In this document: one piece after another, positions 8,508 to 64,000 of the stretch
Numbering within the stretch: position 1 is the first letter of the stretch
How the letters are laid out: each line of letters begins with the position of its first letter
From: Mustelus asterias
Taxonomy: Eukaryota
Direction of reading: 5' to 3'
Assembly (NCBI RefSeq): GCF_964213995.1
Contig: NC_135817.1
Coordinates: 53,072,001-53,136,000, forward strand
DNA: 64,000 nucleotides
Program-made: the position numbers and the translations under genes
Notes under the pieces: model-generated
The model's input: the letters and a program-made list of their open reading frames with translations, nothing else
What the model was told of the DNA's origin: nothing
The model's database searches: none

Positions 8508-9165
8508 CTCTTCCCTAAGGTACCAAGAACTATGATGCCTAAGCAGCTGCAAATGCCTTTGCAATTCCAGCTGGTATGGTGGAACCAGGGGGAGAACCAA
8601 ATGAACTGTGACTTTGGGGCCTGCCATTCCAGCAAAACCTCATGATAAAGGAAGAATTTCAGGAGGCCTAGGACTTTATACGCTTGTAGGATTAGTGCAA
8701 GCGGACTTATTCCCAACTTTGCTATTCCATCTCCTCGCATGTACACACTAAAACAAGATGGCGATTCCTGTGTGGTCTGCACAGCAAGGCATCACCCATA
8801 GATATCTGAATTTTGTATTTGGTATTGGACAATTGGCATAGTACTCTGGTTTATGAGGAACTTTAACATCCATTACAAGTGAATGCTCTGGATTACTAAA
8901 TCTCTCCTGAGCCACTGTGATGTTCAGCATGATTCGAGAAATGGTGGAGATGTAAAGATCACATCTGGTTGTTCAACAAACCTGTCCAAACAGTTATGAT
9001 GTCTTGTATATTACCATGTAAACACTTCTCACTCCACCCGAGAGGCATGCAATCCCCTGTGAGAGAGACCACAATGTGGAGATGCCGGCGTTGGACTGGG
9101 GTGAACACAGTAAGAGTTTTAACAACACCAGGTTAAAGTCCAACAGGTTTATTTGGTAGCAAATA

Positions 9166-9202
9166 CCATTAGCTTTCGGACCGCTGCTCCTTTGTCAGAT
9201 GG
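9166..9202 (-). ncRNA. Mirror copy of the minimal hammerhead motif (left arm)
   Basis: Reverse complement ccatCTGACAAaggagcagcggtccGAAAgcTAatgg. Same G8->A change, plus one helix II mismatch. Confidence 0.65.
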
Positions 9203-11875
9203 AGTGGAAATGTGCACTCAAACAGGGCACAGAGACACAAAAATCAAGTTACAGAATACTGATTAGAATGCGAATCCCTACAGCCAGCCAGATCTTAAAG
9301 ATACAGACAATGTGGGTGAAGGGAGCATTAAGCACAGGTTAAAAAGATGTGTATTGTCTCCAGACAGGACAGCCTGCAAGTCCAGGAGGCAAGCTGTGCG
9401 GGTTACTGATAATGTGACATAAATCCAACATCCCGGTTTAGGCCGTCCTCATGTGTGCGGAACTTGGCTATCAGTTTCGGCTCAGCAACTCTGTGCTGTT
9501 GTGTGTCGTGAAGGCCGCCTTGGAGAACACTTACCTGAAGATCAGAGGCTGAATGCCCGTGACTGCTGAAGTGCTCCCCCACAGGAAGAGAACAGTCTTG
9601 CCTGGTGATTGTCGAGCGGTGTTTATTCATCCGTTGTCATAGCGTCTGCATGGTTTCCCCAATGTACCATGCCTCGGGACATACTTTCCTGCAGCGTATC
9701 AGGTAGACAACGTTGGCCGAGTTGCAAGAGTAGGTACCGTGTACCTGGTAGATGGTGTTCTCACGTGAGATGATGGCATCCATGTCGATGATCCAGCACG
9801 TCTTGCAGAGGTTGCTGTGGCAGGGTTATGTGGTGTCGTGGTCACTGTTCTCCTGAAGGCTGGGTAGTTTGCTGCGGACAATGGTCTGTTTGAGGTTGCG
9901 CGGTTGTTTGAAGGCAAGAAGTGGGGGTGTGGCGATGGCCTTGGCGAGATGTTCGTCTTCATCAATGACATGTTGAAGGCTCCGGAGGAGATGCCGTAGC
10001 TTCTCCACTCCGGGGAAGTACTGGACGACGAAGGGTACTCTGTCCACCGTGTCCCGTGTTTGTCTTCTGAGGAGGTCGGTGCGGTTTTTCGCTGTGGTGC
10101 GTCGGAACTGCTGATCGATGAGTCGAGCGCCATATCCTGTTCTTATGAGGGCATCTTTCAGCGTCTGGAGGTGTCTGTTGCGATCCTCCTCATCCGAGCA
10201 GATCCTGTGTATTTGGAGGGCTTGTCCGTAGGGGATGGCTTCTTTAACATGTTTAGGGTGGAAGCTGGAGAAGTGGAGCATCATGAGGTTATCCGTAGGC
10301 TTGCGGTACAGTGAGGTGCTGAGGTGACCGTCCTTAATGGAGACGCGTGTGTCCAAGAATGCAACCGATTCTGGAGAGTAGTCTATGGTGAGTCTGATGG
10401 TGGGATGGAACTTGTTGATGTCATCATAGAGTTGTTTCAGTGATTGTTCACCATGAGTCCAAAGGAAGAAAATATCATCGATGTATCTAGTGTATAGCAT
10501 CGGTTGAAGGTCCTGTGCGGTGAAGAAGTCTTGTTCGAACAAGACTTCTTCACCGCACAGGACCTTCAACCAATGCTATACACTAGATACATCGATGATA
10601 TTTTCTTCCTTTGGACTCATGGTGAACAATCACTGAAACAACTATATGATGACATCAACAAGTTCCATCCCACCATCAGACTCACCATGGACGACTCTCC
10701 GGAATCGGTTGCATTCTTGGACACACGCATCTCCATTAAGGACGGTCACCTCAGCACCTCACTGTACCGCAAGCCCACGGATAACCTCACGATGCTCCAC
10801 TTCTCCAGCTTCCACCTTAAATACGTTAAAGAAGCCATCCCCTACGGACAAGCCCTCCGAATACACAGGATCTGCTCGGATGAGGAGGATCACAACAGAC
10901 ACCTCCAGACGCTGAAAGATGCCCTCATAAGAACAGGATATGGCGCTCGACTCATCGATCAACAGTTCCGACGCGCCACAGCGAAAAACCGCACCGACCT
11001 CCTCAGAAGACAAACACGGGACACGGTGGACAGAGTACCCTTCGTCGTCCAGTACTTCCCCGGAGCGGAGAAGCTACGGCATCTCCTCTGGAGCCTTCAA
11101 CATGTCATTGATGAAGACGAACATCTCGCCAAGGCCATTCCCACACCCCCACTTCTTGCCTTCAAACAACCGCGCAACCTCAAACAGACCATTGTCCGCA
11201 GCAAACTACCCAGCCTTCAGGAGAACAGTGACCACGACACCACATAACCCTGCTACAGCAACCTCTGCAAGACGTGCCGGATCATCGACACGGATGTCAT
11301 CATCTCACGTGAGAACACCATCTACCAGGTACCTACTCTTGCAACTCGGCCAATGTTGTCTACCTGATACGCTGCAGGAAAGGATGTCCCGAGGCATGGT
11401 ACACTGGGGAAACCATGCAGACGCTACGACAACGGATGAATGAACACCGCTCGACAATCACCAGGCAAGACTGTTCTCTTCCTGTGGGGGAGCACTTCAG
11501 CAGTCACGGGCATTCAGCCTCTGATCTTCAGGTAAGGTTTCTCCAAGGCGGCCTTCACGACACACGACAGCGCAAAGTCGCTGAGCAGAAACTGATAGCC
11601 AAGTTCCGCACACAACAAGTGTCACGTGAGGACGGCCTAAACCGGGATGTTGGATTTATGTCACATTATCAGTAACCCCCACAGCTTGCCTCCTGGACTT
11701 GCAGGCTGTCCTGTCTGGAGACAATACACATCTCTTTAACCTGTGCTTAATGCTCCCTCCACCCACATTGTCTGTATCTTTAAGATCTGGCTGGTTGTAG
11801 GGATTCTCATTCCAATCAGTATTCTGTAACTTGATTTTTGTGTCTCTGTGCCCTGTTTGAGAGCACATTTCCACT

Positions 11876-11912
11876 CCATCTGACAAAGGAGCAGCGCTCC
11901 GAAAGCTAATGG
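11876..11912 (+). ncRNA. Minimal type I hammerhead ribozyme motif of the PLE (G8->A variant)
   Basis: ccat-CTGACAA-a-ggagc(agc)gctcc-GAAA-gc-TA-atgg: helix I, core, helix II, palindromic AGCT in place of helix III. The core reads CUGACAA instead of CUGANGA. Confidence 0.7.
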
Positions 11913-11971
11913 TATTTGCTACCAAATAAACCTGTTGGTCTTTAACCTGGTGTTGTTAAAACTCTTAGAGA

Positions 11972-19282: not shown

Positions 19283-22200
19283 ACATAATAAGAAATAGGA
19301 GCAGGAGTTGGCCATCTAGCCCCTTAAGCCTGCTCCGCCATTCAATAAGATCATGGCTGATCTGATAGGGGGTTCAGTTCCACTTACCCGCCCGCTCCCC
19401 ATAACCCTTAATTCCCTTAATGGTTAAAAATCTATCTATCTGTGACTTAAACACATTTAACGAGGTAGCCTCTACTGCTTCATTGGGCAGAGAATTCCAA
19501 AGATTCACTACCCTCTGGGAGAAGAAGTTCCTCCTCAACTCTGTTCTAAATTGACTCCCCCGTATTTTGAGGCTATGCCCCCTAGTTCTTGTTTCCATTG
19601 TAAGTGGAAATAACCTCGCTGCTTCTACCCTGTCTAGCCCCTTCGTTATCTTATATGTCTCTATAAGATCTCCCCTCAACCTTCTAAACTCCAATGAGTA
19701 CAGGCCCAGTCTACTCAATCTCTCCTCATAAGTTAACCCCCTCATCTCCGGAATCAACCTGGTGAACCTTCTCTGTACCCTCTCCAAAGCTAATATATCC
19801 TTTCTTAAATAAGGGGACCAAAATTGTACACAGTACTCTAGGTGCGGCTTCACCAGTACCCTGTACAGTTGCAGCATGACCTCCCTGCTTTTATACTCCA
19901 TCCCTCTCGTGATAAAGGCCAACATTCCATTTGCCTTCTTGATTACCTGCTGCACCTGCAAACTGAGTTTTTGTGATTCATGCACAAGGACCCCCAGGTC
20001 CCTCTGCACAGTAGCATGTTGTAATTTTTCACTGTTTAAATAATAGTCCATTTTACTATTATTCCTTCCAAAGTGGATAACCTCACACTTACCAACGTTA
20101 TACTCCATCTGCCAGATCCTTGCACACTCACTTAGCCTATCCAAATCTCTCTGCAGACTCTGTGTCCTCCACGCAATTTGCTTTCCCACTCATCTTTGTG
20201 TCATCCGCAAACTTTGTTACCCTACACTCGGTCCCCTCCTCCAGATCGTCTGTGTATATGGTAAATAGTTGAGGCCCCAGCACTGATCCCTGCAGCACAC
20301 CACTAGTCACTGATTGCCAACCGGAAAAGCACCCATTTATTCCGACTCTCTGCTTTCTGTTAGATAGCCAATCCTCAATCCACGCTAACACTTTACCCCT
20401 AACTCCGTGTACCTTTATCTTATGCAGCAACCATTTGTGAGGCACCTTATCGAATGCCTTCTGGAAATCTATATATACCACATCCACCGATTCCCCTCTG
20501 TCAACCGCACTCGTTATATCCTCAAAAAATTCCAGTAAATTAATCAAACATGACTTTCCCTTCATGAATCCATGCTGCGTCTGCTTGATTGAACCATTCT
20601 TTTCAAGGTGTCCTGCTATTTCTTCCTTAATGATAGATTCCAGCATTTTCCCAACTACGGATGTTAAGCTAACCGGCCTGTAGTTCCTGCCTTTTGTCTA
20701 TCTCCTTTTTTAAACAGTGGCATTACATTAGCTGTTTTCCAATCAGCTGGCACCTCCCCAGAGTCCAGTGAATTTTGATAAATTACAACTAATGCATTTG
20801 CTATTACTTCTGCCGTTCCTTTTAGTACCCTGGGATGCATTCCATCCGGACCAGGGGGCATGTCTACCTTTAGTCCCATTAGCCTACCCAGCACTACCTC
20901 TTTAGTAATAGTGATCGTTTTGAGGTCCTCACCCCCTACAGTCCCATGACTGTCACTTATTGATAAGCTATTTGTGTCCTCCACTGTGAAGGCCGACACA
21001 AAAAACTTGTTTAAGGCCTCGGCCATTTCCTCGTTTCCTATTATTAAATCCCCCTTCTCGTCTCCTAAGGGACCAACATTTACTTTAGCCAGTCTTTTCC
21101 GTTTTATATATTTGTAAAAACTTTTACTATCAGTTTTTATATTTTGTGCTAGTTTACATTCATAATCTATCTTTCCTTTCTTTATTGCTTCCTTAGTAGT
21201 TCTTTGTTTTTTAAAGCCTTCCCAATCTTCTAGTTCCCCACTAATTTTGGCCATTAGTATGCATTGGTTTTTAATTTGATACTCTCCTTTATTTCCTTAG
21301 TTATCCATGGCTGGTTATCCCTTTTCTTACATTCCTTCTTTTTCACTGGAATATATTTTTGCTGAGTACTGAGAAAAATCTCCTTAAAAATCCTCCACTG
21401 TTCCTCAACTGTCCCACCAATTAGTCTGTGTTCCCAGTCTACATTAGCCAACTCCGCCCTCATCCTATTGTAATCCCCCTTGTTCAAGCAGAGGACACTG
21501 GTTTGGGACCCTACTTTCTCACCCTCCATCTGTATTAGAAATTCAACCATATTGTGATCACTGATTCCAGAGGATCCGTCACAAGGAGATCATTAATTTT
21601 ACCTATCTCATTACATAGGACCAGATCCAAGATAGCTTGCTCCCTCGTAGGTTCTGTAACATACTGTTCGAGGAAACTATCGCGACAGCATTCTAAGAAC
21701 TCTTCCTCAAGTCCACCGTGTCCGACTTGAGTTGACCAATCAATATGCAGGTTAAAATCCCCCATGATTATTGCTGTTCCATTTTTACATGCATCTGTTA
21801 TTTGTTTGTTTATAGCCCGCCCCACCTTGAAGTTATTATTTGGGGGGCTATAGACTACGACCACCAGTGACTTTTTCCCCATAATATTCCTTATCTCCAC
21901 CCACATTGATTCCACATTTTACTCCTTCGAGCCTATATCGTCTCTCACTACCACCCTGATGTTATCCTTAATTAACAGAGCTACCCCACCTCCTTTTCCT
22001 TCCTATCTATCCTTCCGAATTGTCTAATACCCCATGATATTTAGTTCCCAGTCCTGGTCACCCTTCAACCACGTTTCTGTAATGGCCTGCTAGATCATAC
22101 CCATTTGTTCTGATTTGTGCCGTCAACTCATTCACTTTGTTTCGAATGCTACGTGCATTCAGGTAAAGTGTCTTTATGTTAGTCTTTCTTACCTGGACCC

Positions 22201-25626: not shown

Positions 25627-26986
25627 GAACAAAGAAAATTACAGTGCAGGAACAGGCCCCTCGGCCCTCCAAGCCTGCACCGACCATGCTACCTGACTTA
25701 ACGAAAACCCCCTACCTTTCTGCGGACCATATCCCTCTATTCCCATCCTATTCATGTATTTGTTAAGACGCCCCTTAAAAGTCACTATTATATCTGCTTC
25801 CACTACCTCCCCCGGTAACGAGTTCCAGGCACCCACCACTCTCTGTGTAAAAGATCTGCCTCGTACATCTCCTTTAAACCTTGTCCCTCGCACCTTAAAC
25901 CTGTGCCCCCTAGTAATTGACTCTTCCACCCTGGGAAAAAGCTTCTGACTATCCACTCTGTCTATGCCTCTCATAATCTTGTAGACTTCTATCAGATCAC
26001 CCCTCAACATCCGTCGCTCCAGAGAGAACAAACCAAGTTTCTCCAACCTCTCCTCATAGCTAATGTCCTCCATACCAGGCAACATCCTGGTAAATCTTTT
26101 CTGTACCCTCTCTAAAGCCTCCACATCCTTCTGGTAGTGTGGCGACCAGAATTGAACACTATATTCCAAGTGCGGCCTCACTAAGGTTCTATAAATCTGC
26201 AACATGACTTGCCAATTTTTAAACTCAATGCCCCGGCCGATGAAGGCAAGCATGCCGTATGCCTTCTTGGCTACCTTCTCCACCAGCGTTGCCACTTTCA
26301 GTGACCTGTGTACCTATACCCCCAGATCGCTTTGCTTATCAATACTCTTAAGGGTTCTACCATTTACGGTATATTTCCTATTTGTATTAGACCTTCCAAA
26401 ATGCGTTACTCACATTTGTCCGGATTAAACTCCATCTGCCATCTCTCCACCCAAATCTCCAACCGATCTATGTCCTGCTGCATCCTCTGATGGCCCTCAT
26501 CGCGATCCGCAAATCCACCAACCTTTGTGTCGTCCCCAAATTTACTAATCAAGCCAGTTACATTTTCCTCCAAATCATTTATGTATATTACAAACAGCAA
26601 AGGTCCCAGCACTGATCTCTGAGGAACGCCACTTGTCACAGCCATCAATTCAGAAACGCACCTTTCTATTGCTACCCTCTGTCTTCTTTGACCAAGTTGG
26701 TTTTGTATCCAGAGCTCACCTCTGATCCCATGCGACTTCACCTTCTGCATTAGTCTGCCATGAGGGTCCTTGTCAAAGGCCTTACTGAAGTCCATGTAGA
26801 CAACATCCACTGCCCTACCCTCATCAATCATCTTCGTCACTTCCTCAAAAAACTTGATCAAGTTAATGAGACACGACCTCCCCTTCACAAAACCATGTTG
26901 CCTCTCATTAATATGTCCACCCATTTTCAAGTGGGAATAAATCCTGTCTCGAAGAATCCTCTCCAATAATTTCCCTATCACTGATG
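25627..26986 (-). mobile_element. 5'-truncated CR1 LINE nested in an older CR1 3' end
   Basis: ORFs 26406-26981 and 25639-26295 (RT and C-terminus). Flanked by TAATTCAA at 25619-25626 and 26987-26994. Confidence 0.9.
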
Positions 26987-27929
26987 TAATTCAAACCTTT
27001 CAGTCCCATTTAGTCAAACAGCCAGCATTCATACTTGATAAGAGAGTGTGACATGCAGGGTAGTAGGTGCAGGTAGATCCTTTACTCCCACATGAAGTTC
27101 ATGGGGAGGGGGAGCATTACTAGATTAGTGCAGAGAGGAAAGATCTCAGGAACTGGGATAAAGACTTTGTGGTTGCTTATCAACATCACCTCGACAGATA
27201 CACAGATGGATTGCACATTTTAGAGCCGTATGAAACCGCTGTTTATCTCCACTTGACTAAATTGATTTGAAAATCCACTGAAATTTGTAACCAGCTGGAA
27301 TGTATACAACAGAATAAAGCCTCTGTAGACACTTTACAATTATTTTGAAATCCTGTTTTTTCTAAGCTTATTAAAGCTGTTTTCAGGTTTGAACTCGAAC
27401 TAGACATCAGCCCAATGTTGTTTCACAGGATGATCTGAAACCTTTTTAATTTATCAGTTGTTGGGATTGCTAAGTATATAGGTCAAGGAATCAGTGCCAT
27501 TGTCAGTGTATGCAGAGATTAACAGTAATGTATGAGAATTTGTTTAATATGATCAACCCAGTTGGTAACATTTCCTGTGGTGATTTGTACAATACCTGAT
27601 GAGGACAGGAAAGACTCTGCTGCCTGAGTGCCAATTCTAATCTCACTGCATGAGATAAAACATTGAAATATAGAGATAAACAGAGTTAATGTTACGAAAG
27701 TGAAAATAAATAGTAAAGAGGTATTAGAGGCGCATGTTCTTTGTAGCCTTATCTTCAAACCCCTCCAATTCTACCCCACCACAGGAATTGAAATTGCCTT
27801 TATCAAAGACACGTTACATCCAATGTAGACCCTTTCTCCTGATTTTTCTCCAACTTTCTGCAGCCTTTTACTAGGCTGTCAAACCATCCTCCTTTGTTGA
27901 TTGCACAGTGTTTGGTACCATTTGTAACT

Positions 27930-28440: not shown

Positions 28441-31206
28441 CGCCTTGTCATCTGCCTGTCCTTTTGTCTGCCTCAGACCTGTTATGGCAGGCAGCAACCT
28501 GACTCCAGCCCATTCCCGTTGGGTAGCCACGAAAATAGCGTGAGTGATCACTGCCGGCCAGGAGGTGGATTGCAATATCAGGAAACCTTCCTGACTCCCA
28601 ATTTCCCCTCCCAAGATAAAATTCGGCTCTTGGTTTTTTTAAATTACAAATATGACTTGATTCTTTGCTGGGCTCTTGATGCACATTCTCCAAATTAGTT
28701 ACTTAATTCATTTACGGAAATCATGCTGTCAAAAGTATTCTCGCGATTGGGTGTTTTGAATGGAACAACCTGAAGGCCAATTTCATTATGATCTACATTC
28801 TTTACAGTTGCAGGGTACAATTTAGAATGAGGAGCAATAATGCATTGTGCCGAGTGCAGGTTGTCTCAGTCTGGCAGATCCAGGATCTGGCATTCACACT
28901 TGGGAATCATCCAAGATGTGAAGCTTCTGGACTTGAGCCCATCGGAAGCAGCAGTGTAATGTGACTGATGGGGTAAATCAGCAGGAATTCTATCTTGATT
29001 TGTTCCATAGCACCCCCTTGTGTCTGTTCACACAGTGATCACAAGGATGCATGATCCTTGCCTTGGTGATAATGCATACTTCAAACATTTGACCATTTGG
29101 AAGTGAGCTGGAAGGGCATTCCAATTGCAGCACACACATTGTGTTGTCGCCACTTCCAGGTTCACACAAGTGGATGTAAAAACAGGAGATGATGTAGATG
29201 AATGCCTGGCTGGAAAGGTGGTGCAGGGAGTGAGGGGTTTAAATTCCTGGGGCTCTGGGGGAGATGGGCCCTACAAAGGTCGACAGGTCAGGTGGGTGGC
29301 ACCTAAACAGATTTCCTTGCTGGGCATTTTGTTAGTCCTATTGAGGAGAGGATTTAAGCTAACTTGACCAGGATGTGACCCCAGAGAGGATTACCAATGT
29401 GCACAGATTACTGGGAGAGACAGATAGCATTAGAGCAGGAAATCATAAGTTCAGAGTAAGGGAGAATGTGATACACCCTAAATTAAGGCTGGCTCGGTTG
29501 TTTCAGAGGGCCACTGAGAGTCAATCACATTGCTGAGGATCTGGAGTCACCTGTAGGCCAGACCAAGCAGATAGCAGATTTCCTTCCCAAAAGAGCATTA
29601 GTGAACCAGATGGGTTTTTGCAACAATGGTTATGGAAACCACACCTACCCCCCCTCCCCCTGCCCCAATAGAAACCACTTGGCAGTGCCCGGGCATTGAT
29701 CCATGGCAATAGGTCATGACCCTCTTCCCTCTTTGGGCTGTACTTACCTGTGCACCCTTAGCAGGGATCATTCGCCAGGTTCCTGTTTCACAAAACCTGT
29801 CACAAACCCTGTCAACGTGACGTCATGCCAGCGGTGGAAGGAGAGTTTGCGGGAGATCCCTACACGGGGGATTGATACACTGTATATTGTAATGTATGCT
29901 AATGAGGTTCCCGACCTTTCATGTACTTGTAATACAATGGCATGCCGTGAATGCTCATTAGTGTAAAATATTATTTTAACACAGTCTTACCTTCAGTTAA
30001 CAGTGCATGAGAATCTCATTGACCTGGTTCACATGTGTTCAGAAGTGGCATGCAGCATTCTCGAAATCTGCAGCAGAAGTGGGGGGAGAAGGAGAATAGC
30101 AGCTTGCATGGAGCTTTAGGACCGACAAGGGGGAGTCATGCTGAGAAAGGTTGTGAAGTGGGGTCAGGGGCACGGAGGTGAGAATGAGGGATTGGGGGAG
30201 GGCAGAGGTTGAGATTGGGGACATAGAGTGAGAAGAGCCTGGCATCCTGGGTGTGGTGGGGTGCGAAAGTCAGCTAACGTGAGAAAATGAGGGATCTCAA
30301 AGATGGTGTCAGTGCTGTCCATCTTGGGGTTGGCTGCCAGCGCCCTTTCGGTTCCGGTTACGACTTCAGGAACAACACACCATTAACAAAGTCCTGGCCA
30401 TGACATTGTGGCTTTAACAGAAACTTGACTGGGTATTAAATATTCCTGGGTACAAGGAGTTCAGGAAAGGGGAGGGGCGGTAGTCTTGATTAAGAACAAC
30501 CTTGCCCTTCCGGCCGAGAGAGGAGGTCCATTTTGCCATTTAAGATGTGGTACATTTCTCATTGTAGTCTGTAGGCCCCCAACCAGTGGGAAGGATGTAG
30601 AGGAACAAATTTGCAAGGAAATTACAGATGGGTGCAAGCATTATATAGTAGATATAATGGTGGATTTTGAATATCCAAATATAGACTGGGTTAGTAGTAC
30701 TGTGAAGGGCAGTGAGGGATAGGATTTATTAGAGTGTGTTCAGGAAAATTTCCTGCGGCAGTATGTTTTCAGTCCATCGAGAAAGAAGCTTGACTGGGTT
30801 CTTGGGAATGAGGTGAACCAAGTGGATCAAGTAAATGTCAGCGGAGGAACATTTGGGGGACAATGATCGTTGCATCATAAGGTTTAGATTGGTTATGGGC
30901 AAGGAACAATGCAGAGTACAAACAATCAACTGGGGGAAAGCCAATTTCAAAGGTTAAGAATGGATCTTACCGGATACGTTGGAAACAAAGGACAGCAGGC
31001 AAAACCCGAACTGAATAATGAGCTACCTTTAAAGAGACGGTTCAGGTACAATCAAGGTGTATTCCCATGAAGGGGAAAGGTAGGGCAAACAAATCCACAG
31101 CCCTCGGATGATGAAAGAGATAGAGATTAAGATGACGCAGAGGAAGTGCGTTTATGATGGAGGTCAGGTGCATAATACAACCGAGAACCAGGCTGGATGT
31201 AAAAGG

Positions 31207-31514
31207 TGATGCGCGATTAAATCACTCGGGAGGCTGGATCGTACCCGGGAAATAAAGGCTTTTATTAGTAACAAGAATGGAGCATACTATATAACAATAC
31301 AATCCCAGACTAAAGGGTCACCAGGCAGTGCAGTGACCTTTATACTCCTACAGGTAGGCGGAGCCAACCGGAGTGTACCACAGAACAATACCAACAGGTA
31401 GACCACCCCAACCCTAACCCCAACAGTGACAACAGTAACATATGTACAAGTACCCATAGTGCTAACCATCTATGGTTCAGTACCCATAGTGGTAACCATC
31501 TATGGTTCACCACA
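31207..31514 (-). repeat. 3' LTR of element A (308 bp)
   Basis: Matches the 5' LTR except for 3 substitutions that I counted and one fewer 30-bp unit. Confidence 0.95.
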
Positions 31515-31528
31515 TTCACCCCTCCTTT
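31515..31528 (-). promoter_or_regulatory. Polypurine tract of element A
   Basis: Sense AAAGGAGGGGTGAA directly before the 3' LTR. Identical tract at 60492-60505 in element B. Confidence 0.85.
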
Positions 31529-31577
31529 AAAAACAAAGGCCAGTGGGGCAAAAAAACAGTACGAACTGTCCATATAT

Positions 31578-34500
31578 TCACAAGTTCAGTCGTATCGGAG
31601 GGCCGCACCGTCTCTGCGACCTCCTCAACACTGGCGGTAGCGCCGGTTCTGGTGACCGTGATGACCCTCTCTCCAAGGCGGTGTCCAGTGACTCCTCCAG
31701 TTCCTCACGGACAGGTGGACCACGAGGTGGCGACAATCTCCTGGACTCGAGCACGCCCCGAGGTGGCGACAATCTCCTGGACTCAGGCAAGCTGTACATG
31801 GGAGTAAGAAGATTAAGTGGTGGTCCCGATACTGCCCGCGCCGTGTCAGGAGGAGAGATAAAGGTCAAGGGGTCCCTAACCAGGGGTGCGGGAGCGACAG
31901 GGGTTTCCAAGTCCCCTGCAGGCGCCAGATCTCGAATAGAGACCGTGTCCTCTGGCCCGTCAGGATATGCCACATAGGCATATTGAGGGTTGACGTGGAG
32001 GAGATGGACCTGTTCAACCAAAGGGTCGGACTTGCGGGTCCTAACATGCCGCCGCAGGAGGACAGGTCCTGAGTACATCAACCAAGACGGCAGTGAGGTC
32101 CCAGAGGAAGACTTCCTAGGGAAGGTAAACATCCGCTCATGTGGGGTAGCGTTGGTTGCCGTACACAGGAGGGACCGGATTGAATGGAGCGCATCAGAAA
32201 GTACCTCTAGCCAACGGGAGACTGGAAGACCCTTAGACCTCAACGCCAGTAAGACAGCCTTCCAGACTGTAGCATTTTCTCTTTCAACCTGCCCGTTACC
32301 CCTGGGGTTGTAACTCGTAGCTCTACTTGAGGCAATCCCTTTTGAGAGCAGGTATTGCCTCAAGTCGTCACTCATAAACGATGAGCCCCTATCACTGTGG
32401 ATATAGCTGGGGTAACCAAACAGGGTGAAAAGATCCCGCAATGCTTTGATAACCGTGGCAGTAGTCATGTCTGAACAGGGAATGGCAAAAGGGAATCGGG
32501 AGTACTCGTCAATCATGTTGAGGAAGTACACATCCCGATCTGTCGAAGGAAGGGGGCCCTTGAAATCCACACTGTCTTTCAAAAGGGCGAGTGGCCTTAA
32601 TGAGGTGTGCCCTGTCATTTCGGTAGAAGTGCGGCTTGCATTCAGCACATACTGGCAGCTTCGGGTTATTGACCTGACATCCTCTACTGCGTAGGGTAGA
32701 TTCCGGGCCTTTACAAAATGGAAGAGCCGAGTGATCCCCGGATGGCAGAGATCATGGCAGAGATCATCAGAGGGCCTATAACCGATCCTCCTGCACCCTG
32801 GCACATGTTCCATGCGACAGGGCGTCTGAGGGCTCATTGAGCTTCCCCGGACGGTACATGATATCATAGTTGTAGGTGGAGAGTTCGATTCTCCACCTCA
32901 AGATTTTATCATTTTTGATCTTACCCCGTAACGTGTTGTTGAACATGAACGCCACGGACCGCTGGTCCGTGAGCAGGGTGAATCGTTTTACAGCCAAGTA
33001 ATGGCGCCAATGCCGGACAGCCTCCACAATGGCCTGAGCCTCTTTTTCCACCGCGGAGTGCCGAATTTCAGGGCCTTGGAGGGTGCAAGAGAAAAAGGCG
33101 TCGGGCCTGCCCACCTGGTTAAGTGTGGCGGCCAGGGCAAAATCAGATGCATCACTCTCCACCTGAAAGGGGATGGACTCATCGACAGCGTGCATCGTGG
33201 CTTTCGCGATGTCAGCTTTTATCCCTTCAAAGGCTAAGCGAGCCTCTGCTGCCAGGGGAAAAGAGGTAGACTTTATGAGCGGACGGGCTTTGTCCGCATA
33301 ATTGGGAACCCACTGTGCGTAATACGAAAAGAAGCCTAAGCATCTTCTCAGTGCTTTGATGCTAGTGGGTAGGGGAAGTTGAAGGAGGGGACGCATACGG
33401 TCTGGATCAGGGCCAAGGACCCCGTTTTCCACCACGTATCCGAGAATTGCTAGGCGGCGCTTGCTAAATACATACTTCTCCCTGTTATAGGTCAGATTCA
33501 GGCGAGACGCAGTGCGTAAAAACTTTAGGAGGTTGGCATCGTGGTCCTGCTGGTCATGGCCGCAGATAGTGACGTTGTCCAGGTACGGGAAGGTAGCCCG
33601 TAGCCCGTTTTGGTCCACCATTCGGTCCATTGCACGCTGGAAGACCGAGACCCCATTCGTGACGCTAAAGGGGACCCTTAAGAAGTGGTAGAGACGACCA
33701 TCCGCCTCAAAGGCCATATATTTTCGGTCCTCTGGGCGAATGGGGAGCTGGTGGTAAGCTGACTTCAAGTCAATGGTGGAGAACACCCGGTACTGCGCAA
33801 TCTGGTTGACCATGTCAGATATGCGTGGGAGAGGATACGCGTCCAGCTGCGTGTATCTATTAATGGTCTGACTATAGTCTATGACCATCCGGGGTTTGTC
33901 TCCAGTTTTAACCACCACGACTTGTGCTCTCCATGGGCTAGTGCTAGGTTGAATGATCCCTTCCCTGAGGAGCCGCTGAACCTCAGATCGAATAAAGATC
34001 CGATCCTCAGCGCTGTAACGCCTGCTCTTAGTTGCAATGGGCTTGCAGCCTGGCACGAGATTCTCGAATAAAGATGGCGGGGTGATTCTGAGTGTCGAGA
34101 GACTGCACGTGGAGCGCGGTGGGCAATTTGGAGGCTGCTGTTCTCCCACTGAAAGTGGAGGGAGTGGCCCATCGTACTGCAGGGTCACACTCCTCAGGTG
34201 GACCATAAAGTCTAGTCCCAGGAGTAGCGGAGCACAAAGGTGCGGTAACACGAGGAGCCTGAAGTTCTCATAAACTGTGCCCCGCACCGTTAGGTTGACC
34301 ACGCAGCTCCCAAGAACGGTAACAGATCGAGACCTCGACGCCATAGAAATTGTCTGTCTGACAGTCTGTACTCGGAGACCGCACCGTTTCACAGTGTCAG
34401 GATGAATGAAACTCTCTGTGCTCCCGCTGTCAAACAGACAATGTATTAGGTGTCCATTTACCTCTATGCCCATCATGGACTTGTCGAATCTGTGAGGCTT

Positions 34501-34713
34501 GGCCTGGTCCAGGATGATTGATGCCACCGTTGGGTCTCGAGTGCAACTGCAGGCAGCTGAGATGGTTGATGATGATGACCCCTGCTGGTCGTCTGCGGTC
34601 GGTGCCGACCAAAATGGCTGCACCCATGGATCGCACGTGGTCGGTGGCGCTGAAAGTGGTGGCACCCGCAGGTCGCACGTGTCTTGCGTCGTCGTCGTCA
34701 GGAATGGCGGTGC
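31578..34713 (-). pseudogene. pol: Pol of element A (PR-RT-RNaseH-IN), disrupted by frameshifts
   Basis: LFDSGS protease, IDLKSAYHQ / YLDN RT, SDASD RNase H, VDFKGP / HSDRG / VERENA integrase. Same frame as gag. Frameshifts near 32750-32780 (with a 12-bp duplication TGGCAGAGATCA) and near 32575-32650. Confidence 0.9.
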
Positions 34714-35583
34714 TCATGAATCGCACGTGGTGGAAGACCTCGATGAAGCTGGAGACAAGGTGACAGATTCTGGAGAATCACACGCCGCACTGCGAGGCTT
34801 CGAGGGTGGTTTAGCTCTGCACACTTTGGCATAGTGCCCTTTCTTCCCACACACGGAGCAAAATCCCGTTCTGGCTGGACATCGCTGCCGAGGGTGTTTC
34901 GCCAATCCACAGAAATAGCACCGCGGGCCTCCTGGAGCTGCCGCCGTCGTCAGGTCCGAGGTTGAAAGCACGATCGCGCAGTTTCTCGGAGCCGCTGGGT
35001 AGAGTTGAGTCGGTGGCTGTACTTGCCACGATGTTCCCACGTGGTCGGTGGGGTAAGTTTCCAGACTTCTGGAGGCCGTTTCCATCGTGTCAGCCAATTC
35101 CACCGTCTTAGCTAGGTCTAAGTTACCTTGCTCTAGCAGCCGCAGGCGAATATAGGATGAGCCGATTCCCGCCACGAACGCATCTCGAATCAAATCGTTA
35201 GTATACTGGGTCGCCGACACTGGCTTGCAATTGCAGGCTCTGGCTAGCTGCTGAAGTTCGCGCAGGTACTGTCCCGTCGTTTCACCAGGCTGCCGCCGTC
35301 GAGTGGCTAGAAGGTGTCGAGCATGAATCTCGTTTGGCGGTTTGTTGTACAGTTTCTTAAGTAGTTCGATGGCCCCTTTGTAGTCTTGGGCATCATGGAT
35401 TGATGAATATACAGTGTCGCTTACCCTTGCGTGGAGGACCCGCAGTCTATCGGCATCATTTTGAATGGCTGTTGAGGCATCGATATAGTCTTGAAAACAC
35501 TTCAACCAATGGTCGAAAGTGTTCGACGCTCCAGCTGCACGCGGATCTAAGGTAAGCCGATCGGGTTTTAACATTTGCTCCAT
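34714..35583 (-). CDS. gag: Gag of element A (two zinc knuckles)
   Basis: CYFCGLAKHPRQRC and CSVCGKKGHYAKVC knuckles. Ends at an in-frame TGA where element B has W (TCDSW). Confidence 0.9.
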   Translation of the reverse strand: MEQMLKPDRLTLDPRAAGASNTFDHWLKCFQDYIDASTAIQNDADRLRVLHARVSDTVYSSIHDAQDYKGAIELLKKLYNKPPNEIHARHLLATRRRQPGETTGQYLRELQQLARACNCKPVSATQYTNDLIRDAFVAGIGSSYIRLRLLEQGNLDLAKTVELADTMETASRSLETYPTDHVGTSWQVQPPTQLYPAAPRNCAIVLSTSDLTTAAAPGGPRCYFCGLAKHPRQRCPARTGFCSVCGKKGHYAKVCRAKPPSKPRSAACDSPESVTLSPASSRSSTTCDS

Positions 35584-35602
35584 GGTTTTTTTTTAACCAA
35601 AA

Positions 35603-35617
35603 TTGTTACTAATAAAA
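35603..35617 (-). promoter_or_regulatory. Non-tRNA primer-binding-site position, complementary to the element's own LTR
   Basis: Sense TTTTATTAGTAACAA begins 1 nt after the 5' LTR end. It is the exact reverse complement of LTR 35672-35686. No TGG start. Confidence 0.75.
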
Positions 35618-35618
35618 T

Positions 35619-35956
35619 TGATGCGCGATTAAATCACTCGGGAGGCTGGATCGTACCCGGGAAATAAAGGCTTTTATTAGTAACAAGAATGGAGCATACT
35701 ATATAACAATACAATCCCAGACTAAAGGGTCACCAGGCAGTGCAGTGACCTTTATACTCCTACAGGTAGGCAGAGCCAACCGGAGTGTACCACAGAACAA
35801 TACCAACAGGTAGAACACCCCAACCCTAACCCCAACAGTAACAACAGTAACATATGTACAAGTACCCATAGTGCTAACCATCTATGGTTCAGTACCCATA
35901 GTGGTAACCATCTATGGTTCAGTACCCATAGTGGTAACCATCTATGGTTCACCACA
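35619..35956 (-). repeat. 5' LTR of element A (338 bp)
   Basis: Minus strand TGTGGTGAAC...GCGCATCA. TATAAA at 35751-35756(-), AATAAA at 35673-35678(-). Three copies of a 30-bp unit. Confidence 0.95.
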
Positions 35957-37642
35957 AAAGGTTTGGAGGGAAAGTGAAAAAGCCAATAAGATGAGACTGG
36001 CAGCCAACATAAATTGAAATCCAAGTCATCTCAAGGCATATCGATAGTAAAATGGTGGGAAAGGAGGAATGGGGTCAATTAAAGACCAAAAAGGGAATTG
36101 ACAAATGGAGGCAGGGGCATAGCTGAGGTATTAAATGAATACTTAGCATCTCTCTTTGCCAAGAAAGAAGCTGCTGCAAAGCTCATGGTGAAAGAGGAGG
36201 TAACTCAGCCCCTGGAAGGGTTTAAATGGATAAAGAGGAATAGATAGGCTGTCTGTACTTTGATTGTTGATGAGGCACCAGGACTGGTTGAAATGCATCC
36301 AAGGATAATGAGGGAAGTAAGAGTGGAAATTGCCATAATCTTTCAACTTTAGTTCAACTCCAGTGTGGTGCCAAATGACTGGCGAATTGTCGATGTTACA
36401 TTCTTGTTCAAACAAGGGTTTAAAGATAAGCCCAGCAACTACAGGCCAGTGAGTTTCACTGCCAATCAGTGGGGAAGCTTCTAGAAATGATAATTTGAGA
36501 TAAAATTAATAACCACATAGATGTATGCAGGTTAATTAAAGAAAGCCAACATGGATTTGTTCATGGCAAATCATGTTGAACAAACTTGCTGGAGTTTTTG
36601 ATGAGGTAAGAGAGAGGATTGATGAGGGTGATGCTGTTAATGTGATGTACTGGGACTTCCAAAAGGTATTTGATAAGGTCCCACACAACAGATTTTTGAG
36701 CAAAGTTATAACTCGTGAGATAAAGAATCAAATAGTGACGTGGACACAGAATTGTTGAGAGACTAGAGTTAGTGGATACTTTTCAGACTGGAGGAAAGTT
36801 TGTAGTGAAATTCCAGCGGTCAGAGTTAGGATCCTTGCTCTTCCTGATATATAATAATGACCTAGACCTCGATGTATAGGGTACAATTTCAAAGTTTGTG
36901 GATGATATGAAACTTGAAAGCATTGTGAGCTATGAATGTAGAACTTCAAAAGGACATGGACAAATTGATGGAATGGGCAGACAAGTAGCAGATAAAATTT
37001 AATGCAGAGAACTGTAAAGTGATTCAGTTTGGTAAGAAGAATAGAGAGATAATACAAAGTAAAGGGTCCGATTCTAAAGGGAGTACAGGAGCAGAGGGAT
37101 CTGGCTGTTTATGTGCCTAAATTATTGAAGGTAGCAGGACATGTCAAGAGCCCTGTTAGTAAATCACATGGCATCCTCAGCTTTATCAATAGAGGAATAG
37201 AGAACAAAAGCAGGGACGTTATCTTAAACTTGTACACAACATTGGTTCAGCCTCAACTGAAGTATTGTGTCTAGTTCTGGATGCCAGACTTTAAGAGAAG
37301 TGAAGGTTTTAGAGACAGTACAGAAAAGATTCACAAAATAACCATTCTAGGGATGAGGAACTTCAATTATGAAGATAGAGTGGAAAGGTTGAGACTGTTT
37401 GACACTGCTTCCTTGGAGAGGCGAAGATTGAGAGGAGATTATATAGCGGTATTCAAAATCATGGGTGGTCTGGACAGAGTGGATAGGGAAAGAATGTTCC
37501 CCTTGATGGAAGGATCAAGAAGATGAGGGTACAGACTTGAGGCAAGTGAAGCAACAGAGACATGAGGAGAAACTTTTTCACACAGCGAGTAATTAAGATC
37601 TGGAATACACTGCCTGAGAGTATAGTGGTGGCATGTTCAGTT

Positions 37643-44133: not shown

Positions 44134-44667
44134 CAAAAAACAAAGAACAAAGAAAATTACAGAACAGGCCCTTCGGCCCTCCAAGCCTGCACCGACCATG
44201 CTGCCCAACTTAACTAAAACCCCCTACCCTTCTGGGGACCATTTCCCTCTATTCCCATCCTATTCATGTACTTGTCAAGACGCCCCTTAAAAGTCATTAC
44301 CTCCCCTGGCAACGAATTCCAGGCACCCACTACTCTCTGTGTAAAAAATCTGCCTCGTACATCTCCTTTAAACCTTGCCCCTCGCACCTTAAACCTATGC
44401 CCCCTAGTAATTGACTCTTCCATCCTGGGAAAAAGCTTCTGACTATCCACTCTGTCCATGCCTCTCATAATCTTGTAGACTTCTATCAGGTCTCCCCTCA
44501 ACCTCCATCGCTCCAGTGAGAACAAACCAAGTTTCTCCAACCTCTCTTCATAGCTAATGCCCTCCATACCAGGCAACATCTTGGTAAATCTTTTTTGTAC
44601 CCTCTCCAAAACCTCCACATCCTTCTGGTAGTGTGGCGACCAGAATTGAACACTATATTCCAAGTGC
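44134..44667 (-). mobile_element. CR1 3' fragment (same family as 25627-26986)
   Basis: HLEYSVQFWSPHYQKDVE...GAWNSLP, near-identical 3' UTR and (TTCTTTG)n tail. Confidence 0.9.
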
Positions 44668-60173: not shown

Positions 60174-60491
60174 TGATGCGTGACAATCAAGCACGAGGTA
60201 CAAGGCTTCAGCGATTGAAGGCTTTTATTGACAAACAATGGAACTATCTAAACACGAGTACACCAATCCAGACTGGAGGGGTCCCGCCTGAGCAGAGGGT
60301 CTTATACCTCTCCCAGGAGGCGGGGCCTGACCGGAATGTGCCATAACAGCATCCACCACAGGTATATTAATCCCACAGTGTAAACACCCTAGCCCAACAA
60401 CAACATTATAACAACCCCACAGTGTCAACACCCTAACCCAACAGCAACATTGGAATAACCCCACAGTGGTAACCAACGATGGTTCACCACA
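60174..60491 (-). repeat. 3' LTR of element B (318 bp)
   Basis: Shares termini (TGTGGTGAACCATC... / ...GCATCA) and AATAAAAGCC with element A LTRs, with a diverged interior. Internal repeats ccacagtgt(a/c)aacaccctaa/g. Confidence 0.9.
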
Positions 60492-60555
60492 TTCACCCCT
60501 CCTTTGAAAACAAAGGCCGGCGGGGTGCGAAAACAGACTACATATATACAAAAAT

Positions 60556-63500
60556 CTACAAGTCCAGACGGTCTGGAGGACCGCACCGTCGCTGTGACCT
60601 CCTCAACACCGGTTGTGACACCGGAGCAGGTGCTTGCGGTGGCGTTCTCTCCAAAACAACGTCCGGCTGTCCCCTCGAGGACTCACGGGCCGGTTGACCC
60701 TGGTGAAGTGGTGGTGCAGGGGATCCCGGTACCTTCTGTGGTGGCGCCGATCTCCGAGTCTCAGGCAAGCTGTACATGGGAGTATAACTGTTATGCACTG
60801 GTCCCGGTGCTGACCGCGCCACGTCCGGGGAAGAAATAAGTGATAGGGGATTCGTGACAGGGGGTATGGGAGCGACAGGAGTTGCTACGTCCCCTGCGGG
60901 CGCCAGGTCTCGGATCGAGACTGTGTCCTCTCGCCCGTCAGGATATGCCACATAGGCATACTGAGGGTTGGCGTGGAGGAGGTGGACCGGTTCGACCAAG
61001 GGGTCGGACTTGCGGGCCCTTACATGTCGCCGCAGAAGGACGGGTCCTGGGTACGTCAACCAGGCTGGTAAAGATATCCCCGAGGACGACTTCCGAGGGA
61101 ATGAGAACATCCTCTCGTGGGGAGTAGCATTGGTTGCCGTACACAGGAGGGAGCGAATGGAGTGGAGCGCATTTGGAAGGACCTCCTGCCAATGGGAGAC
61201 TGGAAGGCCTTTGGACTTCAGCGCCAGTAGGACAGCCTTCCAGACTGTAGCATTCTCTCTCTCCACCTGTCCGTTGCCCCTAGGGTTGTAACTCGTGGTT
61301 CTACTAGAGGCAATCCCGTATGAGAGCAGGAATTGCCTCAAGTCGTTACTCATGAACGACGAGCCCCTGTCGCTATGTATATAGCAGGGATACCCGAACA
61401 GGGTAAAAAGATCACGGAATGCCTTGATCACCGTGGCAGTCGACGTGTCCGCACAGGGGACAACAAACGGGAACCGGGAGTACTCATCTATGATGTTAAG
61501 AAAGTACACGTTCCGGTCTGTTGAGGGAAGGGGGCCCTTAAAATCCACACTCAGCCTCTCGAAGGGGCGAGTGGCCTTGACCAATTGTGCCCGGTCAGGT
61601 CGGTAAAAGTGCGGTTTGCATTCCGCGCAAATCCGACAGCTTCTTGTTACTGACCTGACATCCTCCACCGAGTAGGGCAGGTTGCGGGCTTTGATGAAGT
61701 GGTAGAGCCGAGTGACCCCTGGATGGCACAGATCATTATGGAGGGCGTTCAAGCGGTCCTCCTGCATGGTAGCGCATGTTCCGCGCGAGAGGGCATCCGA
61801 GGGCTCATTGAGTTTCCCTGGACGATACATAATATCGTAATTATAGGTGGAGAGCTCAATTCTCCACCGCAAGATCTTGTCATTCTTGATCTTGCCCCTC
61901 TGCGTATTATTGAACATAAACGCCACGGATCGCTGATCCGTGATCAGGGTGAACCGCTTTCCCACCAGGTAATGGCGCCAGTGTCTGACGGCCTCCACAA
62001 TGGCCTGGGCCTCCTTCTCCACCGCTGAATGCCGAATTTCGGGACCTTGAAGGGTGCAGGAAAAAAACGCGACGGGCCTGCTTGCCTGGTTCAGTGTGGC
62101 GGCCAGGGCGAAATCAGATGCATCACTTTCCACCTGAAAAGGGATGGATTCATCCACCGCGTGCATCGTGGCTTTCGCAATGTCGCTTTTCAAAGCCTTG
62201 AAGGCCAATTGGGCCTCTGGCGTGAGCGGAAAAGTTGTGGACTTGATGAGCGGACGGGCTTTGTCCGCGTAGTTGGGGACCCACTGCGCATAATAAGAGA
62301 AGAAGCCGAGGCATCTCCTTAGTGCTTTTGCGCTAGCGGGCAAGGGAAGTTCAGTAAGGGGGCGCATACGGTCTGGATCAGGGCCAATGACCCCGTTTTC
62401 CACCACGTATTCCAGGATAGCTAACCTGCGCGTACGGAATACACACTTCTCCCTGTTATAGGTCAGATTCAGGCGAGACGCAGTGCGCAAAAGGTTCTGG
62501 AGGTTTGTGTCATGGTCCTGCTGGTCATGGCCGCAGATGGTGACATTATCCAGGTACGGGAAGGTAGCCCGCAACCCGTTCTGGTCCACCATTCGGTCCA
62601 TAGCACGCTGGAAGACCGAGACCCCATTGGTGACACCAAATGGAACCCTAAGAAACTGATACAGACGACCATCCGCCTCAAAAGCCGTGTATTGTCGGTC
62701 CTCTGGGCGGATGGGGAGTTGGTGGTAGGCGGACTTAAGGTCTATGGTGGAGAACACCCGGTACTGCGCAATCTGATTGACCATATCAGATATGCGCGGG
62801 AGAGGATACGCATCCAGCTGCGTATAACGATTAATGGTCTGACTGTAGTCGATGACCATCCGGGGTTTGTTCCCGCTTTTAACCACCACGACCTGTGCTC
62901 TCCACGGACTAACGCTGGACTGTATGATCCCTTCTTTGAGGAGCCGCTGAACCTCAGATCTGATGAAGATCCGGTCTTCAGCCCTGTAACGCCTACTTTT
63001 AGTAGCGATGGGCTTGCAGCCTGGTACCAGATTCTTAAATAGAGAGGGTGTGGTGATCTTTAGTGTGGAAAGATTGCATGCGGGGCGCTTTGGACGATTT
63101 GGAGGCTGCGGCTGATTCCCTACTGCCAGCGAAGGGAGTGGCCCACCGTACTGTAGGATCACACTCTTCATGTGGACCATAAAGTTTAGTCCGAGGAGAA
63201 TTGGCGCGCAAAGATGCGGCAACACAAGGAGCCTGTATCGCTCGTAAATTGTGCCCTGCACCTCCAGAGTTACCACACAATGTCCTTGGATCGGTACAGA
63301 CCGGGACCGTGATGCCATAGAAATTGTCTGTTTGGCAGGTAGAACCCGGAGTCCACACCTCTTTGCAGTGTCAGGGTGAATAAAACTCTCGGTGCTCCCA
63401 CTGTCAAACAGACAATACACAGTACGACCATTTACCTTGATGGTCATCATTGAACAGTCAAGTCTGTGATGCTTAGCCTGGTCCAGGGTGATCGACGCCA

Positions 63501-63987
63501 CCGTTGGCCCTTGGACGTCACTGCAGGCAGCCGAGGTTGATGCTGAGGACCCCTGCTGGTCGCTCCTGGTCGTCGTCGACCAAGATGGCCGCCCCCATGA
63601 ATCGCACGTGGGTGAGGGCGCCAAGCGTAGCGACTCCTGGTGGTCATCCTCCTCCTCCGCCAGCCACAATGGCGTCGTCCTGGGCTCGCACGTGGTCGGA
63701 CCTCGTGGGTACTGCAACGCCGATGGAGATTGTCTCCGTTCTGGAGGGTCACAGGCTGCACTGCCGTTCTTGGGCTTCGATCTGCAGACTTTCGCGTAGT
63801 GCCCCTTTTTACCGCACTGACTGCAGATCACCGTTTTAGCTGGACACTGTTGCCGTGGATGCTTGGCTCCTCCGCAAAAATAGCACCGCGGGCCGCCTGG
63901 GGCTGCCGCCGTCGTCGGGTCGATATGGGAGCGCGAGCCCGTGGGGCGAGGAGGGATTTGTGACTGCTCCTGCCACGTTGTCTCCAC
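60556..63987 (-). CDS. pol: Intact single-frame Gag-Pol (C-terminal 1143 aa; start outside window)
   Basis: Two CCHC knuckles, LFDSGS, IDLKSAYHQ, PFG, YLDN, SDASD...EKE...TDQ...DALSR, HHCC (HNDLCH...CRIC) and D-D-E integrase, with no stops. Confidence 0.93.
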   Translation of the reverse strand: METTWQEQSQIPPRPTGSRSHIDPTTAAAPGGPRCYFCGGAKHPRQQCPAKTVICSQCGKKGHYAKVCRSKPKNGSAACDPPERRQSPSALQYPRGPTTCEPRTTPLWLAEEEDDHQESLRLAPSPTCDSWGRPSWSTTTRSDQQGSSASTSAACSDVQGPTVASITLDQAKHHRLDCSMMTIKVNGRTVYCLFDSGSTESFIHPDTAKRCGLRVLPAKQTISMASRSRSVPIQGHCVVTLEVQGTIYERYRLLVLPHLCAPILLGLNFMVHMKSVILQYGGPLPSLAVGNQPQPPNRPKRPACNLSTLKITTPSLFKNLVPGCKPIATKSRRYRAEDRIFIRSEVQRLLKEGIIQSSVSPWRAQVVVVKSGNKPRMVIDYSQTINRYTQLDAYPLPRISDMVNQIAQYRVFSTIDLKSAYHQLPIRPEDRQYTAFEADGRLYQFLRVPFGVTNGVSVFQRAMDRMVDQNGLRATFPYLDNVTICGHDQQDHDTNLQNLLRTASRLNLTYNREKCVFRTRRLAILEYVVENGVIGPDPDRMRPLTELPLPASAKALRRCLGFFSYYAQWVPNYADKARPLIKSTTFPLTPEAQLAFKALKSDIAKATMHAVDESIPFQVESDASDFALAATLNQASRPVAFFSCTLQGPEIRHSAVEKEAQAIVEAVRHWRHYLVGKRFTLITDQRSVAFMFNNTQRGKIKNDKILRWRIELSTYNYDIMYRPGKLNEPSDALSRGTCATMQEDRLNALHNDLCHPGVTRLYHFIKARNLPYSVEDVRSVTRSCRICAECKPHFYRPDRAQLVKATRPFERLSVDFKGPLPSTDRNVYFLNIIDEYSRFPFVVPCADTSTATVIKAFRDLFTLFGYPCYIHSDRGSSFMSNDLRQFLLSYGIASSRTTSYNPRGNGQVERENATVWKAVLLALKSKGLPVSHWQEVLPNALHSIRSLLCTATNATPHERMFSFPRKSSSGISLPAWLTYPGPVLLRRHVRARKSDPLVEPVHLLHANPQYAYVAYPDGREDTVSIRDLAPAGDVATPVAPIPPVTNPLSLISSPDVARSAPGPVHNSYTPMYSLPETRRSAPPQKVPGSPAPPLHQGQPARESSRGQPDVVLERTPPQAPAPVSQPVLRRSQRRCGPPDRLDL

Positions 63988-64000
63988 GTGGTCTTCTGGA

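Follow-up and report, generated by a model that had tools for sequence, protein, structure and literature searches.

A Ty3/Gypsy retrotransposon family in the genome of Mustelus asterias encodes a reverse transcriptase (RT) whose catalytic residues read Asp-Asp-Asn, and this enzyme, acting in cis, likely still copies its own RNA, a reading based on sequence comparison to which we assign a probability of roughly 0.83. The lineage-level natural change from Asp to Asn in Ty3/Gypsy is real, and a precedent has been published in another superfamily. The window (the whole 64,000-nt stretch of DNA analysed) carries two members of the family, elements A and B. A reading of the sequence alone had placed a YLDN motif in the RT of element A, and minus-strand positions 33585-33574 do read TAC CTG GAC AAC. 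The motif sits within ATFPYLDNVTICG, inside the Pfam RVT_1 domain, which is flanked by protease, RNase H and integrase. The features are as follows.

31207..35956, minus strand: element A, a 4.75-kb Ty3/Gypsy LTR retrotransposon; this copy is broken
35619..35956, minus strand: 5' LTR of element A, 338 bp, TG...CA
31207..31514, minus strand: 3' LTR of element A, 308 bp
31202..31206, plus strand: left copy of the 5-bp target-site duplication (TSD) of element A, AAAGG
35957..35961, plus strand: right copy of the 5-bp TSD of element A, AAAGG
35751..35758, minus strand: TATA-like box in the 5' LTR of element A, recognised by eye
35672..35686, minus strand: LTR segment ending AATAAAA, predicted self-primer of element A, which pairs with the primer site
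35603..35617, minus strand: primer-binding-site position of element A, one base past the LTR, with no TGG tRNA complement
34717..35592, minus strand: gag frame of element A with two CCHC zinc knuckles (Pfam and open reading frames)
34170..34470, minus strand: aspartic protease of element A, FDSGS at 34434
33349..34026, minus strand: RT polymerase domain of element A (Pfam RVT_1)
33769..33771, minus strand: RT motif A aspartate of element A (IDLKS), equivalent to Ty3 D151, intact
33574..33585, minus strand: RT motif C of element A, YLDN; the Asn codon is AAC at 33576-33574
32815..33180, minus strand: RNase H of element A, D-E-D-D residues present
31578..32897, minus strand: integrase frame of element A, D,D(35)E, without a chromodomain match
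31515..31528, minus strand: polypurine tract of element A
60174..64000 and beyond the window (locus L078), minus strand: element B, a sister subfamily of A
62545..62556, minus strand: RT motif C of element B, YLDN, ending GAT AAT, in an open frame

The description of element A as having near-identical LTRs and a clean TSD held up: the LTRs differ by 3 mismatches in 308 aligned bases and by one extra 30-bp tandem unit, and AAAGG stands on both sides. The copy itself is damaged by a TGA stop at 34714-34716 and by a frame change near 32776-32897, between RNase H and integrase; since its frame is broken, the RT of this particular copy cannot be argued to be functional. The 30-bp tandem unit lies at the U3 end of the LTRs (35861-35956 and 31449-31514), and its copy number is unequal between the two. 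Element B has an open gag-pol frame at 60556-63999, a 3' LTR at 60174-60491 and a 5' LTR beyond the window, and its LTRs are 97.8% alike. The catalytic residues of both its RNase H and its D,D(35)E integrase are intact, D877 and E913 of the latter among them, and the AlphaFold model of its RT (pLDDT 95.4) has Ty3 RT as its top-ranked match. Two contig sets presumed to be RNA-derived, when compared with element B, yielded short divergent pieces that were uninformative on start sites, strand and expression.

Alignment of element A to Ty3 RT (4OL8, E 5.5e-47) placed YLDN on YLDD, with the Asn at D214. The family has the pol order of Ty3/Gypsy elements (Metaviridae), protease-RT-RNase H-integrase, together with TG...CA LTRs, a short TSD, a polypurine tract, a D,D(35)E integrase and, among solved RTs, Ty3 as the closest; the canonical YxDD, which is usual in the group but does not classify it, is replaced by YLDN. 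Laboratory mutants at these positions have been described. In Ty3, D151N and D213N are polymerase-dead and D214N is active in vitro with lower processivity, and no mutant transposes (PMC5371799). In Ty1, D211N reduces kpol 223-fold, prefers Mn and retains polymerase activity in vitro without transposition, and RNase H suppressors bring about a partial rescue of the mutant (PMC2148107); the earlier statement that the second Asp-to-Asn change in Ty1 keeps some in vitro activity and is transposition-defective is correct according to that source. It follows from these mutants that the third Asp acts as an accessory ligand and that its absence can be made good. Ty3 D214N and Ty1 D211N thus share both position and swap with the present family, but they are non-transposing laboratory mutants, whereas here the Asn is natural and present in at least 10,499 copies.

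This count comes from a search of the 3.68-Gb genome with patterns for sites coding FPYLDNVT, for the YLDD version and for a YLDS control that represents the other A-to-G change. FPYLDNVT was encoded at 10,499 sites, and the pattern read backwards had 1 match. The YLDD version had 17 sites and the YLDS control 31, so that D sites were not enriched above the control. When the pattern was relaxed for sister families, 21 YLDD sites were found genome-wide. Four of the 17 YLDD copies were examined, and their nearest neighbours carried N in 29/29, 28/29 (the other being S), 14/14 and 14/14 cases; these four are lone mutants amid N copies. N is therefore the state of the family and not a quirk of single copies, and the possibility, raised with the first observation, that the family consensus is YLDD and that N appears only in dead copies does not fit a count of 10,499 N against 17 D. 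Two of the YLDD copies (L070 and L071 on G000:C11) lie 55 kb apart with RTs 99.7% alike, and this pair more likely reflects a local duplication than a YLDD lineage. The RT-bearing copies number at least 10,499, in six or more subfamilies; with some 4.7 kb per copy, the family would exceed 1% of the genome if most copies are full length.

The same counts bear on whether a gene that encodes Asn might still give a working enzyme with Asp, either because AAY undergoes A-to-I editing or by deamidation, which we consider exceedingly improbable. A-to-I editing of AAY gives Asp by established chemistry, and an edited codon would indeed read as Asp; edited RNA would, however, seed GAY insertions, and GAY copies amount to 0.16% of N copies, below the 0.30% of the AGY control. 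Deamidation is disfavoured in that Asn-Val is a slow deamidation context.

Selection on the RT was assessed across six N subfamilies (146 copies read), which carry N in all but one copy, an S, and are separated by pairwise dS of 0.22-2.4. Between these subfamilies RT dN/dS, a measure that the sequence-only reading had proposed, is 0.044-0.094 (0.089 for A versus B), and the RT is under strong purifying selection across all six. We also collected 20 copies, sampled for long frames and not at random, of which all 20 encode YLDN in a single frame of 1342-1349 codons; their LTRs have a median identity of 98.7% (range 95.7-99.7), and a 5-bp TSD was seen in 17. No identical LTR pair was present among the 20. 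The family was mobile recently, and given the LTR divergence in all 20 long-frame copies this activity may not be current. The earlier claim of recent mobilisation is thus supported at the level of the family, as the lineage is naturally YLDN and includes young whole-frame copies. A test for preference of N over D was not significant (the probability of no neutral A-to-G change is 0.14-0.37 over about 3 synonymous substitutions per site), and N may be neutral rather than preferred.

These copies also address decay, that is, a G-to-A change by CpG deamination or an APOBEC-type process in dead copies. The D-to-N change is a single G-to-A, it falls in a CpG where GAC comes directly before it, as it does in element A, and copy A is broken. 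However, both AAC and AAT occur as the Asn codon among the subfamilies, and in 5 of the 6 the codon before it is GAT, which leaves no CpG; moreover, young whole-frame copies carry N, as does the whole of a 17-row clade, described below, in which the named shark and ray proteins fall. Decay is virtually excluded as a general account, and for this family it is refuted by the 10,499 N sites, the 20 of 20 long-frame copies and the six N subfamilies.

The alignment and phylogeny that had likewise been proposed show N to be family-wide within a clade in which the site switches between D and N. The closest named homologues belong to catsharks and rays (78-82%). Among the best 120 homologues, 98 have xxDN, 20 have xxDD and 2 have another motif, and all 120 have Asp at motif A. 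Tree rows were drawn from these best 120 and from the best 150 representatives, of which 262 RT rows were long enough, a sample that reflects ranking by an N-bearing query rather than a census. One long-stemmed clade holds 217 of the 262 rows, leaving 45 outside; its third site is N in 147, D in 68 and another residue in 2, and its first two Asp are each retained in 213. In the outgroup the third site is D in 45/45. A 105-row maximum-likelihood tree built with the column of the site removed requires at least 16 D/N changes, as compared with 33 for shuffled labels, a count in which single-row N or D tips may be mutations in dead copies; grouping of the N rows as one clade was rejected (p-AU 4.6e-5). 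As the deep rows are nearly all D with this outgroup, D is likely ancestral, and N likely arose within the clade and reverted several times. Every row is N in a 17-row clade to which the named shark and ray proteins belong.

Its RT sequence places the element in a broad clade of animal Ty3/Gypsy retrotransposons, with named members known from sharks, rays, a sea anemone, a damselfly, moths, a leafhopper, a nematode and Ciona. Two clade members, P0011 and P0031, were deposited under bacterial MAG names and are probably animal contamination. The single long ORF and short LTRs of the family fit what we take to be features of Cigr-1. A Ciona intestinalis protein (P0141, XP_026689427.2, YLDD), which may or may not be Cigr-1, falls in the clade. 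The Cigr-1 clade is present in molluscs (PMC6238403), and the portion of that paper's text on the clade that was available makes no mention of a DN motif or of self-priming; the available portions of PMC6238403, PMC3670739 and PMC2774666 do not settle the name of the clade.

With the clade defined, it is possible to weigh whether the N copies lack polymerase activity and depend on a YLDD RT in trans, a dependence that had been named as a threat to the original claim and that we judge to be very improbable. The failure of the Ty1 and Ty3 D-to-N mutants to transpose is what such a scheme would lead one to expect, and more distant RTs are present in the genome, such as the LINE RT fragments in the window. 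Nevertheless, no YLDD sister or partner family was found in the genome among the 17 sites, or 21 with the relaxed pattern, and the four copies checked are the lone mutants described above. RT dN/dS also stays below 0.1 between subfamilies, and a dead polymerase kept as a scaffold for RNase H would not need the other two Asp that 213 of the 217 clade RTs retain.

If the N enzyme copies its own RNA in cis, the Asp of motif A and the first Asp of motif C would hold the catalytic metals, in the manner of Ty3 D151 and D213, and the Asn would keep the carbonyl and side-chain shape of the third Asp while losing its charge. The third site is Asp or Asn in 215 of the 217 clade RTs, a restriction that would be explained if the carbonyl is needed and the charge is not. 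The side chain therefore still matters, and the claim that this lineage works with a two-aspartate RT stands in part: N is natural and family-wide and the RT is conserved, but ‘two-aspartate’ needs the qualifier that the site is still confined to Asp or Asn. An old, clade-wide background may render the charge dispensable and so permit repeated gain and loss of N. Fixed differences between the clade RTs and all outgroup rows, common to D and N members, include Q35, an inserted T54, A90, G125 and V126 (RT query numbering), and these are candidate permissive residues. No column within the clade tracks N versus D cleanly; even the strongest associations are incomplete, and kinship confounds them. 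By analogy with Ty1 and Ty3, in which the swap blocks transposition, compensation is required in this clade.

The sequence-only reading had suggested that the Asn might be tied to the unusual priming of the element. The primer-site 15-mer of element A is a perfect complement of its own LTR segment at 35672-35686, and the leader fold based on this pairing has z = -3.4. The two arms co-vary: across 17 loci, which were chosen for showing the arm, there are 16 distinct primer-site 12-mers, and these pair on average at 11.9 of 12 positions with their own LTR and at 7.6 with the LTRs of others. Of the 24 regions examined, 17 had arms of at least 11 bp; among the other seven, three (L120, L121 and L131) are 5'-truncated, L144 pairs at 11/12, and L148, L154 and L186 are unexplained. 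In the first comparison of LTR pairs, 2 of 11 elements had no usable pair. The primer-site frame is shared across the clade (L078, L082-L087, L110-L184) and consists of the LTR end CA, one base and TTT(T)A. The pairing extends over 11-17 bp, and the LTR segment that takes part ends in TAAA(A), with GCC/ACC-like bases after it. An AATAAA signal lies within this segment in this genome.

We think that minus-strand priming is probably from the element's own RNA, as a separate trait of the clade, and that N and D members alike would prime in this way. Primer sites complementary to the element's own LTR, with no tRNA, are described for Tf1, Tj1 and sushi (PMC4600332), and these chromoviruses resemble the present family in the predicted pairing. 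They differ from it in the chromodomain of Tf1 and sushi, for which neither integrase frame here gave a Pfam chromo match at E 0.01. The pairing arm in our family also lies about 65 nt past the TATA-like box and ends in TAAA(A), so it may not be the RNA 5' end as it is in Tf1, whose self-priming group uses a primer freed by RNase H cleavage. The clade-wide arrangement could be a self-priming mode distinct from that of Tf1.

The link between N and priming was not borne out. A YLDD family (five loci read CYPYLDD, of which L147 and L173 have both LTRs) carries the same 13-bp arm, so that priming and N appear to be separate traits, a separation resting on one D family, the sole one with a readable leader. 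That Asn is an adaptation to self-priming, needed or favoured by an RT that starts on its own RNA:RNA duplex, is thus improbable, although every N element with a locatable 5' LTR end and an intact leader has a self-complementary site and N occurs only in the clade with such a site; the repeated D/N switching inside the clade also speaks against it. A more ambitious reading, which we regard as rather unlikely, is that the clade rebuilt its RT active site so that Asn would be a fully competent and in places preferred third ligand, and that it also evolved a second, independent form of self-priming through a cut internal LTR segment ending TAAA(A), with a duplex that would mask the 5' poly(A) signal in this genome.

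Natural counterparts of the Asn exist among known systems. Nematode BEL/Pao elements (Cer7-Cer12, Atlas) have a natural YVDN in intact LTR elements (PMC554778, PMC9094657), the same change at the same site, and in 2005 their activity was left to be determined (PMC554778). The nematode YVDN group belongs to another superfamily, with a triple Cys-His Gag and D(45-53)E integrase spacing (PMC554778), whereas the element here has two zinc knuckles, D,D(35)E, no env and Ty3 as its best solved relative. BEL/Pao was rejected as the family on the zinc knuckles and integrase spacing. The N of the Gypsy clade and that of the BEL/Pao YVDN elements have independent origins, and the Gypsy site switches back and forth. 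Kuafuorterviruses, which have IADD, VADD or LADD and measure 5-6 kb (PMC11673190), were also rejected, given YLDN and 4.75 kb here. RNA-dependent RNA polymerases have natural variants of this palm motif, motif C, in which Asn replaces the third aspartate, GDN in negative-strand RNA viruses and ADN in birnaviruses, the latter lowering activity (PMC9752661); these are unrelated viral enzymes in which the state is fixed by family. Scans of viral contigs revealed no relatives, and an Atlas search with homologue P0003 returned generic Gypsy clusters only. The double zinc knuckle of our element resembles that of the Mag lineage. We found no report of YxDN in Gypsy elements in literature that covered neither most subscription journals nor Repbase.

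Elsewhere in the window, positions 9111-11967 hold a 796-nt near-perfect palindrome (9741-10536 and 10537-11332, 97%, no spacer) with nested inverted arms reaching to 9111 and 11967, and no Pfam family matches its 249-codon frames. The fragmented frames at 19374-21296 and 25639-26990, which match RVT_1, are probably decayed LINE copies, and related 3' repeats lie at 44295 and 51840.

The third RT aspartate is commonly treated as invariant, and arguments about its role draw on mutants that still polymerise but have lost transposition. The surprise of an exception is lessened by the nematode YVDN elements already described and by GDN/ADN RNA polymerases. A vertebrate family with Asn at more than 10,000 copies suggests that the in vivo block depends on background, and annotation that calls YxDN copies dead would misjudge a major repeat family of sharks and rays. 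The repeated D/N switches provide natural matched enzyme pairs for testing the role of the residue and its compensation.
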